Shown here piece after piece: positions 11,454-21,446 of a stretch of 64,000 nucleotides of DNA. The position numbers and the translations under genes are program-made. Each line of letters begins with the position of its first letter. Within the stretch, counting starts at the first letter, position 1. This stretch comes from Reclinomonas americana ATCC 50394 (lineage: Eukaryota). A model generated the notes under the pieces. It was not told the DNA's origin and ran no database searches. It was given only the letters and a program-made list of their open reading frames with translations. Where the stretch lies: the NCBI GenBank assembly GCA_048213135.1, contig PS015009.1, positions 868,001 through 932,000 on the forward strand. The letters are read 5' to 3'.

Positions 11454-14168
11454 ATGAAAAAAATATCTACCCTGCTGCTGCTTTTTTTTGCAGCGCTAAC
11501 CTTCAAAACAGTTGCCCAGACCCCCACTGCCTGTAATGCCGCATTCTCCATCCAGTTCAGCAACCCGTATACGGTTCAGTTTACCCCGGTAATGCCGGGT
11601 GAGCCCAGCGTGGTACAGCATTACTGGAGTTTCGGTGATGCCAGTGGCAGCAATGCGGTTGCTCCCTCGCACAGTTATAACTCGACAGGGACATATATTG
11701 TAAAGCATTACCTTATTCGCAACAATCCCAATGGCGTGGAAGTGTGCCGAGACAGTATGTCCATGACCATCAACATCCAGCAGGCGCCTTGTAACCTTCA
11801 GGCCAATTTTAACTGGACCGTAAGTACGCAGGACCCGTTGCAGGTGGCTTTCACCAATACCACCATTAACCTGGCTGCCACCGATTCCGTACGCTGGACA
11901 TTTGGCGACGGCACTTCATCACTCGATGTAAACCCATCGCACCATTATACAACCGCCGGTACTTATACCGTTTGCCTGCGTGTGAAAAGGACGATCAACT
12001 CTACTACCACACCCTGCGTGAGCGAAATATGTAAAACCATTACCGTACAAAACCCCTGCAACCTGCAGGTGAATTTTACCTGGAACGCGTCAACAGCCAA
12101 CCCGCTGATGATCGAATTCCATAACCAGAGTACGCCACTGAGTTCTACCGATTCAATTTACTGGTCATTCGGTGATGGCTCTTCTTCTACTGCTGTCAGC
12201 CCTAATCACACTTATAACCAACCCGGTACCTACAATGTGTGCCTGGTAATAAGGAAGACCATAACACCCGGTTCTGCGCCATGCGTTCGTGAGATCTGCA
12301 AAACCATTACCGTACAGACACCGCCCTGTAACCTGGTAGTCGATTTCAGCTGGAATGCAGCGGCTTCCAATCCGTTACTGATCGAGTTCCACAACCTGAG
12401 TACACCGTTAAGTTCCACGGACTCTGTTAAATGGAGTTTTGGCGATGGCACTTATTCTACCGCTGTCAGCCCCAATCATGCATACAGCCAGCCCGGCACC
12501 TATACCGTTTGCCTGGTGGTAAGGAAGACTAATACAACCGGTACGACACCTTGTGTAAGAGAAATCTGCAAGACCATTACCGTACAGGCGCCGCCCTGTA
12601 ACCTGCAGGTGAATTTTACCTGGAACCCTTCAACAGCGAACCCGCTGATGATTGAGTTCCACAACCAAAGCACACCGCTGGATCCCACAGATTCAATATA
12701 CTGGTCATTCGGCGATGGATCTTATTCCACAGCCGTTAACCCTACTCATACCTATAACCAACCCGGCACTTATAATGTATGTCTCATCGTGAAGAAAAGC
12801 AATACCTGCGTACGTGAGATCTGCAAGACCATTACTGTACAGGCCCCTCCCTGCAACCTGCAGGCGTATTTTACCTGGAATGCGTCAGCAGCTAACCCGC
12901 TGATGATTGAGTTCCACAACCAGACCACACCACTGAACCCTACCGATTCCGTGTACTGGACATTTGGTGACGGATCTTCTTCTACAGCTGCCAATCCCAA
13001 TCATACTTACAACCAGCCCGGCACTTACCATGTATGCCTCATCGTAAGAAGGGCCACTGCAGCCGGTACGGTACCATGCGTAAGGGAATACTGCAAAGAT
13101 GTGGTGGTACAGGCACCCCCATGTAATATACAGGTGGCATTCAGCTGGCAAACAGACCCGCAGAATTTCCGTAAAGTGATCTTTACCAACTTAACCGTTA
13201 CACCAACGCCCAATGCTGTAGCCACCTGGACGTTCGGCGATGGCACCAGTGCTACCAGCTGGAACGCGGTACATGAATACGCCCAGCCCGGCAGGTACCT
13301 CGTTTGCCTGAAAGTACAGTACAGCAATACCTGCGTACGCACCTACTGCGATTCGGTGACCATTGCAGCGCCTATGCCGCCCTGCAACCAGCTGAGTAAT
13401 TTTGGTTTTGAAAAATTCGCGAACGATAACCAGAAGTACAAATTCACACCAGCGTACATTAATACAACTTTACAATATACCTGGACATTCGGTGACGGTA
13501 CCGGCAGCCACGACATTGTTGCCACACACCGCTATGCACAACCGGGCACCTATACCGTTTGCCTCACCGTGTGGAACGGACCTAACTGCGCTTCCACTAC
13601 CTGTAAAACAATCACGGTACAACAGCAGATCTACTGCGACAGTGTGCATGTGAGCTATACTTACCAGAGAACAACGGCTTATCCCAACAAGCTGTACTTC
13701 TTCGCCAACAGCAACATGCCCATCCTTGACCAGGTGTGGACCATCACCCGTATACCTGCAACAAGCACATCAGGTACAGTTACGCTTCACCAGAACAACC
13801 CAACCTACATCTTCCCGGATACCGGTTCTTACAGGGTTTGCCTGAAAGCCATTACCGCCGGTGGTTGCGTGAAAGAATACTGCAGCATCATCCGCATTGA
13901 ACTGGTGCAATCGAACATCTGCGAACTGCAGGCCTTCCCCAATCCTACCACCAGCGCTGTGAATGTAAACGTGTTCCTCACGGCACCGGAGATGATACAC
14001 ACTTACATCTACAACTCCGCTAATGTACTGGTGAAAGAAAAACACCAGCAGGGCGTGAGCGGCGGCAACCTGGTTACGATACCCGTTCAGGACCTTGTAG
14101 CGGGACTATATAATATGAAGATCATTTACGGGAACAGGATATGCTATGCCCGTTTCCAGAAATTATAA
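11454..14168 (+). CDS. Secreted multi-PKD-domain protein with a T9SS-type C-terminal domain
   Basis: Signal peptide, eight WxFGD-containing PKD repeats plus one degenerate repeat, C-terminal FPNP...GLY...FQK sorting domain. Confidence 0.9.
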   Translation: MKKISTLLLLFFAALTFKTVAQTPTACNAAFSIQFSNPYTVQFTPVMPGEPSVVQHYWSFGDASGSNAVAPSHSYNSTGTYIVKHYLIRNNPNGVEVCRDSMSMTINIQQAPCNLQANFNWTVSTQDPLQVAFTNTTINLAATDSVRWTFGDGTSSLDVNPSHHYTTAGTYTVCLRVKRTINSTTTPCVSEICKTITVQNPCNLQVNFTWNASTANPLMIEFHNQSTPLSSTDSIYWSFGDGSSSTAVSPNHTYNQPGTYNVCLVIRKTITPGSAPCVREICKTITVQTPPCNLVVDFSWNAAASNPLLIEFHNLSTPLSSTDSVKWSFGDGTYSTAVSPNHAYSQPGTYTVCLVVRKTNTTGTTPCVREICKTITVQAPPCNLQVNFTWNPSTANPLMIEFHNQSTPLDPTDSIYWSFGDGSYSTAVNPTHTYNQPGTYNVCLIVKKSNTCVREICKTITVQAPPCNLQAYFTWNASAANPLMIEFHNQTTPLNPTDSVYWTFGDGSSSTAANPNHTYNQPGTYHVCLIVRRATAAGTVPCVREYCKDVVVQAPPCNIQVAFSWQTDPQNFRKVIFTNLTVTPTPNAVATWTFGDGTSATSWNAVHEYAQPGRYLVCLKVQYSNTCVRTYCDSVTIAAPMPPCNQLSNFGFEKFANDNQKYKFTPAYINTTLQYTWTFGDGTGSHDIVATHRYAQPGTYTVCLTVWNGPNCASTTCKTITVQQQIYCDSVHVSYTYQRTTAYPNKLYFFANSNMPILDQVWTITRIPATSTSGTVTLHQNNPTYIFPDTGSYRVCLKAITAGGCVKEYCSIIRIELVQSNICELQAFPNPTTSAVNVNVFLTAPEMIHTYIYNSANVLVKEKHQQGVSGGNLVTIPVQDLVAGLYNMKIIYGNRICYARFQKL

Positions 14169-16542: not shown

Positions 16543-19458
16543 ATGATGAAACGATTGTCCTACAGCCTGATCCTTTTCTTTTCCTGCTACCTGTCCGCAG
16601 CGCAAACCAATAAAGCGCAAACCTGGGCCGACAGTATTTACAAAACCCTGTCGGAAGATGAACGCATCGCCCAGCTGATGGTTGTCCGTTTATCCACCAT
16701 CGATTCCAAAACCAAACAGGTGACTTTCTTCGACCAGCAGGTAGCGAACCTGGTTAAACAATACAATATCGGCGGCATTTGTGTATTCCAGGGCAGCCCC
16801 GTAAAACAGGCCAGCATACTCAACAGTCTGCAGGCCATGGCCCGCACACCCATACTCGTTTGTATCGATGCCGAATGGGGCGTGGGTATGCGCATGATCG
16901 ACAGCGTACTGCCATTACCCAAACAAATGATGCTTGGCGCCGTGCAGGACCCCAACATTATTTACCAGTACGGCCGTATTGTGGGCGAACAATGCAAACG
17001 CGTGGGCATACAGGTGAACTATGCGCCTGTGGTGGACATCAACAACAACCCCAACAATCCCGTGATCAACGACAGGAGTTTTGGTGAGGACAAATACAAA
17101 GTAGCAGCGTACGCCATCCAATACATGAAAGGTATGCAGGATGTGGGCGTAATGGCCTGCGCCAAACATTTCCCTGGTCATGGCGATGTGGCAGTGGATT
17201 CACATTATGATCTTCCTGTTATCAAAAAGTCGATGCAGGAACTGGATTCGCTGGAGTTGTATCCTTTCCGGCAGATATTCAAAGCCGGTATCGGCAGCGT
17301 GATGATCGCCCATTTGTCGGTACCCGCTATCGACAACACGCCTAACAAACCTACTTCTATTTCAAAAAATAATGTGACCACCCTTATGCGGGAGCAACTT
17401 GGTTACCAGGGCCTCTCCTTTACCGATGCGCTGGAAATGCAGGGCGTGAAAAAATATTATCCTGATGGTGAAGCTTCTCTACAGTCGCTGATTGCCGGCA
17501 ACGATATGCTTTGCCTGCCCGGCGACGTGCCGCTGGCCATCACCAAAATAAAAGAAGCCATCACAAAGGGGCAACTGACCTGGGCCGATATTGAAGCGCA
17601 TTGTAAAAAAGTGTTGCTGTCGAAATACCAGTACGGACTCGCAACGCTTCAGCCCATCAATACCGATAACCTGACCGCCGACCTCAACAGCCAGGTACCT
17701 GCCATGCGCAGGCTGGTAGCGGAGAATGCACTGACTGTTCTGAAAAAGACCGACAGCCTGCTTTTCCCGCTGCGCAAGACCAAACATACCGTATACGTAA
17801 GCATCGGCAACAACACAGAGAATGCTTTTGCCAAACGCATGATAGCCGATTATGACGCCGATGTGATCTATTTCGATTACAAACAGGACGCGTCGGCCAT
17901 GGCTGCAACACTGGCATCCGTTAAAAAGAAATACAAACACATCATCATTGGTGTGCATGGTTACAACCGGGCGCCCGCCAACAACTTTGGCATCAGCAAA
18001 CCCGCCGTTGACCTGGTGCTGGGATTGAGCAACCTGCCCAACAGCATTCTCTTCTCTTTCGGTAATGTATATGCGCTGAAAAACTGGTGCAATGCCCGCA
18101 ATATAGTAGCCTGTTATGAAGATGATAATATTGTGCAGGCTACAGCCGCCGACCTGCTGGAAGGCAAGATAGGCGCAAGGGGAAGACTACCCGTTACCGT
18201 TTGCGATGCTTACCAGTTTGGCAGCGGCATCAGCGTGGCTCGTTTTTTTTTGCCCAGGATTGATCCTGTCAATGCGCACATCAACCCCGCCAAATTACTG
18301 GTCATCGACTCTATCGCCAATGATGCCATCAACCGCGGTGCCACACCCGGCTGCGTGGTACTGGTAGCCAAAGACGGCAACATCGCTTATTATAAGAACT
18401 ACGGCAGTTTTACCTACGACAAAACAGAACCGGTTCAGAAAGAATCGATTTATGATATGGCGTCGGTGACCAAGATCTGCGCTACCACCATTTCGGTAAT
18501 GCGGTTATACGACCAGGGAAAGATCAGGCTCGACGGTATGCTGGGCGATTACCTGCCCTGGGTGAAAGGCAGCAATAAAGACAAACTGAAAATCGAAGAT
18601 ATTCTCCTGCACCAGGCCGGGCTTGTGGCTTATATCCCATTTTATAAAGAAACGATTGATGCCAACGGTATTCCCTTACCCAAATATTATGCATCCGCTC
18701 CATCCGATTCCTTTTCCATCCGCGTAGCGAATAACCTGTATATGCGTACCGACTGGAGAGACAGCATTTATAAACGCATACTGCAAAGTAATCTTGGCGC
18801 TGCCAATAAATATGTGTACAGCGACAATGATTTTATTTTTCTTGGTAAGATAGTGGAGGCTTTAAGCGGGCTGCCGCTCGACCAGTATGTACAAAAAGAG
18901 TTTTACCAGCCCATGGGGTTGAACACCGCCGGTTTTAAACCGCTGGAACGTTTCGCTGTCAACCGTATCGCTCCCACGGAACAGGAGAAACTCTTTCGCC
19001 TGCAACTGCTGCGGGGTGATGTACACGATCCCGGGGCGGCCATGTTTGGCGAAGTGGCCGGGCATGCGGGCCTGTTCAGCAACGCGTATGACCTGGGCAT
19101 GATCATGCAGATGCTGCTGAACGGCGGAACCATTAATGGCAAAAGATACCTGCGTGAAGAAACAGTAAAACTGTTCACTGCTTACCACAGTAACATCAGC
19201 CGGCGTGGCTATGGTTTCGACAAACCGGAGAAAGATAATATGAACCGTACAGAACCTTATCCCTGCCTGTCGGCCTCACCACTCACTTTCGGGCACACAG
19301 GCTTTACGGGTACCTGCGTATGGGCTGATCCTGACTATAATTTATTGTTTGTATTCCTGAGCAACCGTGTTAATCCGGATGGTGGCGATAACAGGAAGCT
19401 GCTGAACATGAACGTCCGTGGAAAGATACAGGAAGCGATATACGATGCTATGCGTTAA
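16543..19458 (+). CDS. GH3 beta-N-acetylglucosaminidase fused to a beta-lactamase-fold serine hydrolase
   Basis: DAEWG, KHFPGHG...DSH, FTDAL; C-terminal ASVTK (SxxK), YSD, FGHTGFTG. Confidence 0.93.
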   Translation: MMKRLSYSLILFFSCYLSAAQTNKAQTWADSIYKTLSEDERIAQLMVVRLSTIDSKTKQVTFFDQQVANLVKQYNIGGICVFQGSPVKQASILNSLQAMARTPILVCIDAEWGVGMRMIDSVLPLPKQMMLGAVQDPNIIYQYGRIVGEQCKRVGIQVNYAPVVDINNNPNNPVINDRSFGEDKYKVAAYAIQYMKGMQDVGVMACAKHFPGHGDVAVDSHYDLPVIKKSMQELDSLELYPFRQIFKAGIGSVMIAHLSVPAIDNTPNKPTSISKNNVTTLMREQLGYQGLSFTDALEMQGVKKYYPDGEASLQSLIAGNDMLCLPGDVPLAITKIKEAITKGQLTWADIEAHCKKVLLSKYQYGLATLQPINTDNLTADLNSQVPAMRRLVAENALTVLKKTDSLLFPLRKTKHTVYVSIGNNTENAFAKRMIADYDADVIYFDYKQDASAMAATLASVKKKYKHIIIGVHGYNRAPANNFGISKPAVDLVLGLSNLPNSILFSFGNVYALKNWCNARNIVACYEDDNIVQATAADLLEGKIGARGRLPVTVCDAYQFGSGISVARFFLPRIDPVNAHINPAKLLVIDSIANDAINRGATPGCVVLVAKDGNIAYYKNYGSFTYDKTEPVQKESIYDMASVTKICATTISVMRLYDQGKIRLDGMLGDYLPWVKGSNKDKLKIEDILLHQAGLVAYIPFYKETIDANGIPLPKYYASAPSDSFSIRVANNLYMRTDWRDSIYKRILQSNLGAANKYVYSDNDFIFLGKIVEALSGLPLDQYVQKEFYQPMGLNTAGFKPLERFAVNRIAPTEQEKLFRLQLLRGDVHDPGAAMFGEVAGHAGLFSNAYDLGMIMQMLLNGGTINGKRYLREETVKLFTAYHSNISRRGYGFDKPEKDNMNRTEPYPCLSASPLTFGHTGFTGTCVWADPDYNLLFVFLSNRVNPDGGDNRKLLNMNVRGKIQEAIYDAMR

Positions 19459-19491
19459 CAACGCTGTATACTGCATTAATAACGGTACAGG

Positions 19492-19617
19492 TTATACGAA
19501 ATAAAGTAGTCCCCAGATCAGCAAAGCAGTGGTGATTATGATAATAATGAACAGAAGCAGTAGCTGGTAAAGCATACGGGCAAGCGCCCGGTACTTTCGG
19601 GTTTCTTCATACTCCAT
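19492..19617 (-). CDS. Putative 41-aa single-pass membrane protein (absent from the ORF track)
   Basis: Manual translation MEYEETRKYRALARMLYQLLLLFIIIIITTALLIWGLLYFV*. Confidence 0.5.
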   Translation of the reverse strand: MEYEETRKYRALARMLYQLLLLFIIIIITTALLIWGLLYFV

Positions 19618-19724
19618 ACTATGAAAGGAGATGCTTCAGCAAATAATATTGTTGCCTGTTATTGTAAAAAGAGTTTTGCTCTTTAGGTTATCTTTCCGTG
19701 ATGCGGCATGTCGGCTTTATTGTG

Positions 19725-19814
19725 GGACGTTATACCTAAGCACGAGGTATCATCCCGAGAAACGAGATATCATTCAAAAAGAGCGGGGCGTCATCCCGAG
19801 GAACGAGGGATCTC
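19725..19814 (+). repeat. Left terminal array: four ~20-nt REP-like units
   Basis: cgttatacctaagcacgagg / tatcatcccgagaaacgaga / tatcattcaaaaagagcgggg / cgtcatcccgaggaacgagggatctc. Confidence 0.9.
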
Positions 19815-19823
19815 AAAACCATA

Positions 19824-20126
19824 TCAGACATCTTCATTCAAAAAGTGCCAGCCTGGATTCATCGTATTAATTAATGCCATCTTCTTTCCACGATTCCAGC
19901 CTTTAATTTCTTTCTCTCTTGCAATCGCCTGTTTGATGTCCGGGAATTGTTCGAAGTATAAAAGATAAAATACATTGTAACGACCGGTGAATGTAGTTGT
20001 TGCAACAGACAAAGAAGCTTGTTTGTGCTCCTGCAACCGCCGGTAAAGGTTGTTGGTTACACCTGTATACAAAACAGTTTTAATTTTATTGGTTAGTATG
20101 TAGACGTAGTAAGTTTTAATAGCCAT
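19824..20126 (-). CDS. Small stand-alone GIY-YIG nuclease family protein
   Basis: YYVYILTN...LYTGVTNNLYRRLQEHK...FTGRYNV...AIAREKEIKGWNRGKK...NPGW. Confidence 0.93.
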   Translation of the reverse strand: MAIKTYYVYILTNKIKTVLYTGVTNNLYRRLQEHKQASLSVATTTFTGRYNVFYLLYFEQFPDIKQAIAREKEIKGWNRGKKMALINTMNPGWHFLNEDV

Positions 20127-20204
20127 AGATCTGCTTTACAGCAAATCTGTGATGGAGAGGGATACGTATGTCTTCGGGTTTTACGTAATGCTTCAGGATG
20201 AAGA

Positions 20205-20314
20205 GAGATCCCTCGTTCCTCGGGATGACACCTCGTTCCTCGGGATGACGCCCCGCTCCTTTTGAATGACGTCTCGTACTCGGGGATGACGCCTTCTTCT
20301 TCGGGATGACGTCC
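20205..20314 (-). repeat. Right terminal array: five ~20-nt REP-like units, inverted relative to the left array
   Basis: gagatccctcgttcctcgggatgaca / cctcgttcctcgggatgacg / ccccgctccttttgaatgacg / tctcgtactcggggatgacg / ccttcttcttcgggatgacg. Confidence 0.9.
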
Positions 20315-20326
20315 TGCTCTTCCGGG

Positions 20327-21211
20327 CTAATATAAGTTCATCAGGATTTGTTTCATCGCTTCCCGGTTCTTCCAGGGTATTTGGTGATCGGCGCCTTTAA
20401 TGGTATCCGCTTTTATGGAACGGGCATTGACCATCATTTTTTCTCCGTATGCGATGTTGCCTAGGGGCACCCAGGTATCTTCATCGCCATGTACAAATAT
20501 GACGTCCGTCTTTATTTTCGAAAGCTCGCCTGCCAGCGGTTTAAGATCATCTTTCAGGTACAATAATTCTGTATTGCTCGGCCCAAAAGCCCCGGGCAGG
20601 CACCAGTACAGGGGTTTGTACCGCATGATGTGCCGCCAGGTCTCCCTTTTTTCCTGTGCAGGATCCAGCGCCCCGGCAACGATTACGATGGCTTTGAAAA
20701 ATAAAGGTTCATCTGCGGCCAGTTTAGCCGTTACAGGCCCGCCCATACTGTGCCCGCAGAGATACATAGGCCGATCGTTCTTCAATTTTTTCAGAACAGG
20801 CATAATGATATTGCATTGGTCTTCCAGGTGCATGGCCTTGCCGAAATCGCTGTAACCAAAACCCGGCCTGTCGATACTCACCATTCGGAACTTTGTACGC
20901 AAAGCGCTGTCGTACATAAACCTCATATAATGAAACCAACTGCCGGGTGAACCATGTATAAAGACCAGTGTGGGCAATTGATCATCACCTGTAACCGCGT
21001 AGTGCAGGTGGCGCCCGTTGATGAGGGTATCGCCAATGGTGAGCGGGGCATTTTTCTTTTTGAAAACGGCCGTGGCCTTACTGTCATTCCAGCGCATACG
21101 CATGCAGCACTGGCAAAAGATCATATAGCCCAGCAGCAGGGCAATGGTAATAACGGAGAGTCGCATTACCTTACTACGAAATGAACGCTTTTTTGTTACA
21201 TCAGACCTCAT
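20327..21211 (-). CDS. Alpha/beta hydrolase (start uncertain, 21211 or 21166)
   Basis: HGSPGS, DRPGFGYS, GHSMGG, HGDEDTWV, GADH. Confidence 0.88.
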   Translation of the reverse strand: MRSDVTKKRSFRSKVMRLSVITIALLLGYMIFCQCCMRMRWNDSKATAVFKKKNAPLTIGDTLINGRHLHYAVTGDDQLPTLVFIHGSPGSWFHYMRFMYDSALRTKFRMVSIDRPGFGYSDFGKAMHLEDQCNIIMPVLKKLKNDRPMYLCGHSMGGPVTAKLAADEPLFFKAIVIVAGALDPAQEKRETWRHIMRYKPLYWCLPGAFGPSNTELLYLKDDLKPLAGELSKIKTDVIFVHGDEDTWVPLGNIAYGEKMMVNARSIKADTIKGADHQIPWKNREAMKQILMNLY

Positions 21212-21446
21212 CGGAATTTTCCGGGAGATGGCTGTACTCCCCGCGGATGGAATAGTATCCAAATATCATCAATCCAATGGAGATGGGCGTAAAAATACCG
21301 ATGATGATGGCCCAGGGAATGGGTTTATTGATGTCTTTGGTACCGTTACTGTCAATATGCTGCACCGCTCCCATAACGAGGAAGATGATCACCGCCGGGC
21401 CCAGCAGCATCCACACAATACCCATAATCTTTTTCAAACTGTTCAT
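21201..21446 (-). CDS. Small two-TM membrane protein (DUF6814-like)
   Basis: KKIMGIVWMLLGP...WAIIIGIFTPI...GEY; directly downstream of the MFS gene. Confidence 0.75.
   Translation of the reverse strand: MNSLKKIMGIVWMLLGPAVIIFLVMGAVQHIDSNGTKDINKPIPWAIIIGIFTPISIGLMIFGYYSIRGEYSHLPENSDEV

Follow-up and report, generated by a model that had tools for sequence, protein, structure and literature searches.

A probable Ssn-family GIY-YIG nuclease gene between inverted hairpin arrays that differ between strains

The data presented here suggest that a short nuclease gene in the 64-kb stretch of DNA analysed in this study (the window) very probably belongs to the Ssn family of single-domain GIY-YIG nucleases. 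From strain to strain the gene, which is resident and not currently hopping, keeps its place, while the inverted repeat arrays around it acquire and lose units and apparently trade them from arm to arm. Both the enzyme family and the layout of a gene between hairpins have already been published (Chenal et al. 2025, Nat Commun 16:2388; PMC11893778), so the locus is not a new system. What it apparently adds to the main text of that paper is a hairpin class carrying GA...GA (GA/GA units), polar stacks of truncated hairpin heads, and turnover of the arrays with exchange between arms from strain to strain. The account we prefer, to which we give slightly better than an even chance as a whole chain, is that the Ssn nuclease nicks at the hairpins, that heads are stacked by repair, and that template switching copies variants from arm to arm. 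The locus offers a test case for whether Ssn enzymes act on their own chromosome and drive repeat spread, a question left open by Chenal et al.

The nuclease and its family

Chenal et al. described single-domain GIY-YIG nucleases flanked by NTS/SRM hairpins as the Ssn family (SsnA, CDD cd10448). According to the main text of that paper, ssDNA-only cutting was demonstrated for four Ssn homologues, and the cut made by Neisseria SsnA is ssDNA-only, orientation-specific and beside the repeat; counting with the length of the product (20 nt) and the NTS75 oligo given there places it 4 nt 5' of the first base of the tag. Loss of SsnA Y6, Y17 or E64 abolished cutting. The cellular role described in Neisseria is restriction of transforming DNA, and the NTS-ssnA-NTS layout was called IS-like, with an analogy to REP-associated transposases and the suggestion that it may have expanded the repeats (PMC11893778). 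A search of the literature on SsnA/GIY-YIG and Ssn/cd10448, with coverage mostly outside subscription journals, found that 2025 paper alone.

The window protein is 100 aa long, and PF01541 was its only match in a family scan, which gives a single GIY-YIG domain under 150 aa. Its predicted model is a compact GIY-YIG domain (pLDDT 92.6), and GIY-YIG folds ranked top in a fold search with that model. A search of plasmid records gave 33 matches, including a Neisseria gonorrhoeae ORF with 9 NTS copies within 3.3 kb and an SRM-flanked gene of Azospirillum lipoferum 4B, one of the strains used to define SRM (PMC11893778). The window protein shares 39% identity with the NTS-flanked N. gonorrhoeae orthologue over 93 aa (pairwise, E 1e-21) and 40% with the A. 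lipoferum protein. By tblastn the same orthologue gave E 1e-12 at 93% cover, within the Ssn limit of E <1e-10 over at least 75% as applied to this N. gonorrhoeae orthologue and not to N. meningitidis SsnA itself. Y9, Y20 and E71 of the window protein align with SsnA Y6, Y17 and E64 (SsnA numbering transferred by counting on the N. gonorrhoeae orthologue) and are invariant across 44 aligned homologues (44 of 121 proteins). In a quick tree, built on 102 columns without reference GIY-YIG subfamilies and leaving many forks open, the SRM-flanked proteins nest among GA-flanked ones, apart from three weak outgroups from the same assembly.

Shared with the published family, then, are a single GIY-YIG domain of ~100 aa with the catalytic Y, Y and E kept, a gene between oriented GTCAT-tagged hairpins that end in ATC, further hairpin copies dispersed in the genome, and co-occurrence of gene and repeat across genomes. 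By analogy with the homologues that have been assayed, the window protein would be expected to cut the GA/GA variant of the unit.

The nearest solved structures, by sequence and by fold, are UPF0213 and Slx1, as would be expected of a housekeeping repair nuclease of the YhbQ/UPF0213 or Slx1 kind that happens to have repeats alongside. However, these PDB matches are weak (E 2e-4, TM 0.55-0.60) compared with E 1e-21 for the SsnA orthologue, and the association of repeats with the flanks of homologues, given below, is far above control. We regard a housekeeping enzyme beside chance repeats as extremely unlikely. No Ssn structure was among the PDB matches, and the single NCBIfam match, below cutoff, was to a group I intron endonuclease.

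The repeat arrays and their hairpin class

Four units on the left (19728-19814) and five on the right (20205-20311, minus strand) make up the arrays, with a period of 20-21 nt (Table 1), as had been described in an earlier note on this DNA made from the sequence alone. Also borne out were its observations that 25 nt of the innermost units L4 and R5 match exactly, that the outer ends of the arms read GGACG/CGTCC, and that a single 100-aa GIY-YIG gene lies between the arrays, in one ORF (20126-19824) with PF01541. In an inverted-repeat comparison the arms are 84 nt long and 81% complementary, and terminal inverted repeats are present. No target-site duplication was evident, again as noted earlier, since no direct repeat of at least 3 nt occurs within 3 nt of both ends. 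The 19-mer of the unit has five matches across the window, every one of them at the nuclease locus, compared with 0.01 expected. A complete unit consists of a GTC tag (GTCAT-tagged), a 5-bp stem, GA...GA and an ATC tail. L4 and R5 are the only complete hairpins, and the remaining seven units are without the 3' arm. An Rfam search of 19400-20400 returned nothing at E 1, a promoter scan of the locus found promoters at shuffle level, and a terminator scan found three terminator-like sites, compared with 0.9 expected, none of them inside the arrays.

Table 1. Features of the nuclease locus and its neighbours (positions in the window)
Feature	Coordinates	Strand	Basis or remark
Left arm outer end	19725..19727	+	mirror identity with right arm ends 3 nt outside tag
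L1, decayed 3'-truncated head, 20 nt	19728..19747	+	polymorphic in runs X2-X4
L2, 3'-truncated head, 20 nt	19748..19767	+	mostly deleted in run X4
L3, atypical head, 21 nt	19768..19788	+	resembles 3' end of nuclease gene; R3 is its mirror
L4, complete GTCAT-tagged hairpin, predicted nuclease target	19789..19814	+	5-bp stem, GA...GA, ATC tail
Probable Ssn-family single-domain GIY-YIG nuclease, 100 aa	19824..20126	-	PF01541, alignment to SsnA
R5, complete hairpin unit	20205..20230	-	25 nt identical to L4
R4, 3'-truncated head	20231..20250	-	near-perfect tandem copy of first 20 nt of R5
R3, mirror of L3 (18/21)	20251..20271	-	inferred identical to L3 in run X3
R2, 3'-truncated head	20272..20291	-	sequence comparison of units
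R1, 3'-truncated head	20292..20311	-	5-6 substitutions in runs X3 and X4
Right arm outer end	20312..20314	-	sequence
Left neighbour: GH3 + beta-lactamase-fold protein	16543..19458	+	context
Right neighbour: alpha/beta hydrolase	20327..21262	-	context
Possible collapsed unit remnant inside R5 (tentative)	20188..20201	-	resembles second (GCT-stem) unit type

The arrays had been described earlier as matched unit by unit. The match is strong for L3 and R3, which mirror each other at 18 of 21 nt (other pairings 8-13), and the strings quoted for them are indeed mirrored, with one mismatch. It is weaker for L1 and L2, which agree with their mirror partners at 14 and 13 positions and with R4 at 15 and 16, although each has a single diagnostic base in common with its partner. 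L3 also matches the 3' end of the nuclease gene, 64 bp distant, at 14 of 15 nt (rough chance 2.5e-4, spotted post hoc), a likeness that suggests local template switching. Besides 20188-20201, a second short stretch at 19628-19641 resembles a collapsed remnant of the GCT-stem unit type known from the doublets of this genome. Elsewhere in the window, 11454-14168 encodes a secreted-looking protein of 904 aa with many internal repeats, PKD-like by eye.

The published SRM pattern matches the Neisseria and Azospirillum loci. However, it had no match in the window and marked none of the units beside 80 homologues (the best 80 of 531 confirmed). Because the published pattern gives no match here, the window unit is SRM-like rather than a formal SRM, differing in its 5-bp stem followed by GA...GA. 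A GA/GA unit was found within 300 bp of 49 of these best 80 of 531 confirmed homologues, compared with 4 of 174 control windows, and units stood on both sides of 32 of the 80, compared with none of the 174 controls; the other 31 had no strict unit nearby. The stem triplet is freely variable yet complementary in 344 of 383 units, with many different pairings. Among Chitinophagaceae, 185 of 401 genomes had a homologue at E 1e-10. At least 10 units were present in 38 of the 81 genomes with a homologue at E <=1e-30 compared with 25 of 320 others, as raw genome counts in which kinship was ignored, and at least 10 were also present despite no homologue match in 12 of 216 genomes, many of them incomplete. 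Supplementary Data 4 of the 2025 paper, with column meanings inferred, includes some Chitinophagaceae that are homologue-positive with no NTS (PMC11893778). Viral contigs, searched with one unit pattern, gave one locus, a gene-less pair. The earlier note had cast the nuclease as the partner of the repeats and had named the flanks of homologues and genome-wide unit counts as places to look; both comparisons agree with its view, as does the lack of a Y1 transposase described below.

The probable host here is in Bacteroidota, a phylum without mention in the main text of PMC11893778, where 'Bacteroid', 'tandem' and 'homogen' each have 0 occurrences; that main text likewise has nothing on truncated heads stacked outward or on exchange between the arms. 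The published motif does not pick up GA/GA hairpins, so that a large branch of enzyme-target pairs, mostly in Bacteroidota (87 of 147 genes in our sample), has probably been under-counted before. Such pairs could add specificities for ssDNA tools. One genome (G349) has up to eight homologue matches. The hairpins differ between its sampled copies (L151-L154), with the same variant on either side of a given gene, which makes them a set suited to the study of enzyme-target co-evolution. At L149 (G297), L161 (G107) and L130/L145 (G072), Ssn genes have been duplicated in tandem or as segments, apparently via flanking repeat modules. The 2.17-Mb record of L182 (NZ_CP119142.1), filed as a plasmid, is probably a chromosome.

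The window's contig is 2.33 Mb long and belongs to a 108-Mb assembly of 16,441 contigs. Its GH3 and MutL proteins are 71% and 81% identical to counterparts in an uncultured Chitinophagaceae genome, which places the probable host in the Chitinophagaceae. This assembly has one nuclease gene of the Ssn kind and 26 strict units on two contigs, 21 of them on the window's contig, including five tight inverted doublets. These gene-less doublets are REPIN-like in layout, which would suit repeats that are REPs moved by an HUH/RAYT transposase encoded elsewhere, with the nuclease as a passenger. However, a search for Y1 (HUH) transposases found no PF01797 match in the assembly (the control search matched in 6 of 14 genomes), the units are concentrated around Ssn genes, and CGTC repeats were described as not flanking tyrosine transposases (Di Nocera et al. 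2013, PMC3733652), so a passenger role for the nuclease appears very unlikely. The CGTC repeats of that study occur in Bacteroidetes and, as far as its text describes them (the figure of CGTC-1 to -4 aside), share with the window units a CGTC/TGTC tag, a stem starting with AT, the formation of dimers, the host group and the lack of a dedicated transposase, but no nuclease partner was recognised for them there.

By analogy, the window locus may work like a RAYT system, though it is not a member of one. Both have a single resident gene between inverted hairpins, dispersed gene-less doublets and an ssDNA hairpin substrate (PMC11893778, as far as its main text goes), but the window enzyme is GIY-YIG and not HUH, and the tag is GTCAT and not GTAG. 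No tie of REPIN/RAYT to GIY-YIG was found among the titles retrieved from the REPIN/RAYT literature. One region of the assembly (G000:C1:1601500-1614900, with L008-L012, L018, L023 and L024) has at least 10 strict units clustered between ordinary-sized genes, as doublets and a three-head stack, with no nuclease match there.

Strain variation and one-sided head stacks

Contigs of four public conspecific runs from four studies (X1-X4), ~99% alike to the window and picked for containing the locus stretch, were compared with it as contig graphs and not as raw reads. The nuclease gene is at the same site in all four. X1, which may be the window's own source, has no listed array difference from the window, and X4 has lost 19752-19792 in a deletion with 8 nt of microhomology. 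A 34-nt segment across the R4/R5 junction is at double depth in X2, where the gene contig starts and ends with it, implying that the extra unit of the right arm is there present in the left arm too. Double depth is also seen in X3, for a segment of 47 nt that covers L3, implying that the right arm bears the L3 version. The outermost right unit carries 5-6 substitutions in X3 and X4, and in X3 it is nearer R2 (17/20) than R1 (15/20). Altogether 11 of the 40 listed strain differences are inside 200 bp of arrays (p 2e-4, with near-end differences outside the listing). As to inversion of the gene between the arms, the listed differences include no strand-change joint, although contigs are blind to it where the arms share a unitig. 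Three of the four listed strain SNPs in the nuclease gene (19852, 19982, 20001 and 20044) change an amino acid, and two match database protein P0002; the nonsynonymous changes are a weak hint of relaxed selection, from too small a number of SNPs for a judgement on it. Ten differences common to X2 and X4 fall in 135 bp of the hydrolase gene (20663-20798). This cluster, at 350 bp from the right arm, resembles a recombined tract.

Across homologue loci, near-identical inverted units were found in 34 of 77 pairs. In these pairs positions -1 to -3 agree in 59 of 102 cases, compared with ~0.29 between loci, and positions -4 to -7 are slightly raised (49 of 136 agree, compared with 0.26 between loci). 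The earlier note had proposed that the two ends are homogenised or were copied from each other. Copying stands, and the strain contigs suggest that it recurs. Steady homogenisation of whole arms was rejected for the window, where the outer units are only 13-14/20 alike; exchange would be episodic. Template switching between inverted-repeat arms has been described to homogenise them without a dedicated nuclease (PMC8604942). Since it is a known host process, arm-to-arm exchange needs no nuclease.

The stacks of heads are polar. Of 613 distinct full units, 21 (9 genomes) have a second copy of the head 7-mer 10-25 nt upstream, whereas none has the tail 7-mer repeated downstream, again as raw counts with kinship ignored. 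With shifted words the ratio of heads to tails was 23:0, 18:1 and 16:2, and with a wider window it was 23:1 (610 units). The duplicated side, that of the head and tag, is the side cut by published SsnA. At L158, where the Ssn gene has a canonical SRM, the stack is two-sided and decays outward, with arms that are not mirrored. Against a role for the nuclease, some units without a gene in the window's assembly (L008, L011) carry head stacks as well. Leftward extension at the junction amounts to 0-2 nt for 25 of 37 heads; extra bases are present in most. A fixed, simple nick-primed duplication starting at -4 was rejected because the junction registers scatter.

The stacks of truncated heads were probably left behind by repeated rounds of cutting and repair, and are probably not the termini of a jumping gene. 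As suggested by its homologues, the enzyme would nick ssDNA a few bases 5' of the tag of each full hairpin. Repair at the nick would re-copy the head, sometimes off a neighbouring template, which is what the polarity points to, and repeated nicking and repair would stack truncated head copies outward. Fold-back template switching, for which host polymerase would suffice, may carry variants between the arms in the manner suggested by the strains, and the hairpin doublets that lie without a gene at other places on the chromosome may be maintained by the enzyme. We infer that nuclease cuts initiate the head duplications.

It is also conceivable, if rather unlikely, that the gene is an Ssn member but that the stacks and the mirror come from host replication slippage and template switching alone, with the nuclease uninvolved. 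The published homogenisation of inverted arms, the microhomology at the X4 deletion, the clean 20-nt tandem copy seen in R4, the irregular head junctions and the strong fold-back of the locus as ssDNA (z -9.4) are all consistent with such a passive origin. However, stalling at hairpins should presumably duplicate tails too, and the observed ratio is 21 to 0. If cutting and repair are indeed at work, as we prefer, one-sided head stacks and strain-level array turnover are countable footprints of possible enzyme action.

Mobility of the gene

A different possibility is that hairpin, gene and hairpin together form a mobile element, and that such elements make up a transposase-free family in which the Ssn genes are autonomous. 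The ends would be set by nuclease cuts at 3-5 nt outside the tags, and host repair would complete the movement; doublets would be non-autonomous, MITE-like offspring, and head stacks would be nested leftovers, an ordered record with the oldest outermost and able to take up nearby DNA, as in L3. If true, a mobile Ssn family would provide the mobiliser that has been missing for CGTC repeats across bacteria. We consider it unlikely, though several results point towards it. The distribution of the genes is patchy and non-syntenic, with up to eight matches per genome, and arms of the same locus agree at -1 to -3 above the level of different loci. Three of six hydrolase loci from metagenomes hold GH3 beside the hydrolase, and the nuclease is absent from all three, the gaps being about 50, 185 and 690 bp. 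The earlier note had looked to an empty site between the GH3 and hydrolase genes; the absence of the nuclease would fit one, but at 73-80% protein identity the loci are too distant for mapping ends at base resolution.

At one Hymenobacter site the gene is present in 1 of 29 relatives, where it is frameshifted, and among the 13 viewed the others are empty, with doublets or with another gene, so that the site has been seen empty, with doublets, and with doublets plus gene. The gene is likewise absent from all 14 Flavobacterium and all 4 Spirosoma loci compared in relatives. Homology between the paralogues L153 and L154 ends 3-5 nt outside the tags, and that between L151 and L152 ends 4 nt outside the tag at one end. 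These boundaries are ambiguous because recombination between repeats could also yield repeat-bounded homology.

Against mobility are the one copy in the assembly, the same site in 4/4 conspecific runs and the lack of a target duplication. At L188, the sole empty site resolved to the base, the two arms are joined through 5 nt of microhomology in the way expected of a deletion, and the site looks like a deletion scar. Among 19 multi-copy genomes no near-identical dispersed pair with clean ends was found; dispersed pairs bounded near repeats are only 76-81% alike, and closer pairs are tandem or long segmental duplications. Enzymes of the GIY-YIG kind act by hydrolysis of DNA and are not known to carry out strand transfer. 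The earlier proposal that the nuclease cuts the arrays to spread itself or its repeats is therefore upheld in part: the partner role stands and cutting has been published for homologues, but a single copy at an unchanged site in four runs speaks against spreading. At L215 (G487), a frameshifted Ssn gene (~1039-1327) with intact flanking doublets occupies the same site as an intact gene in L043.
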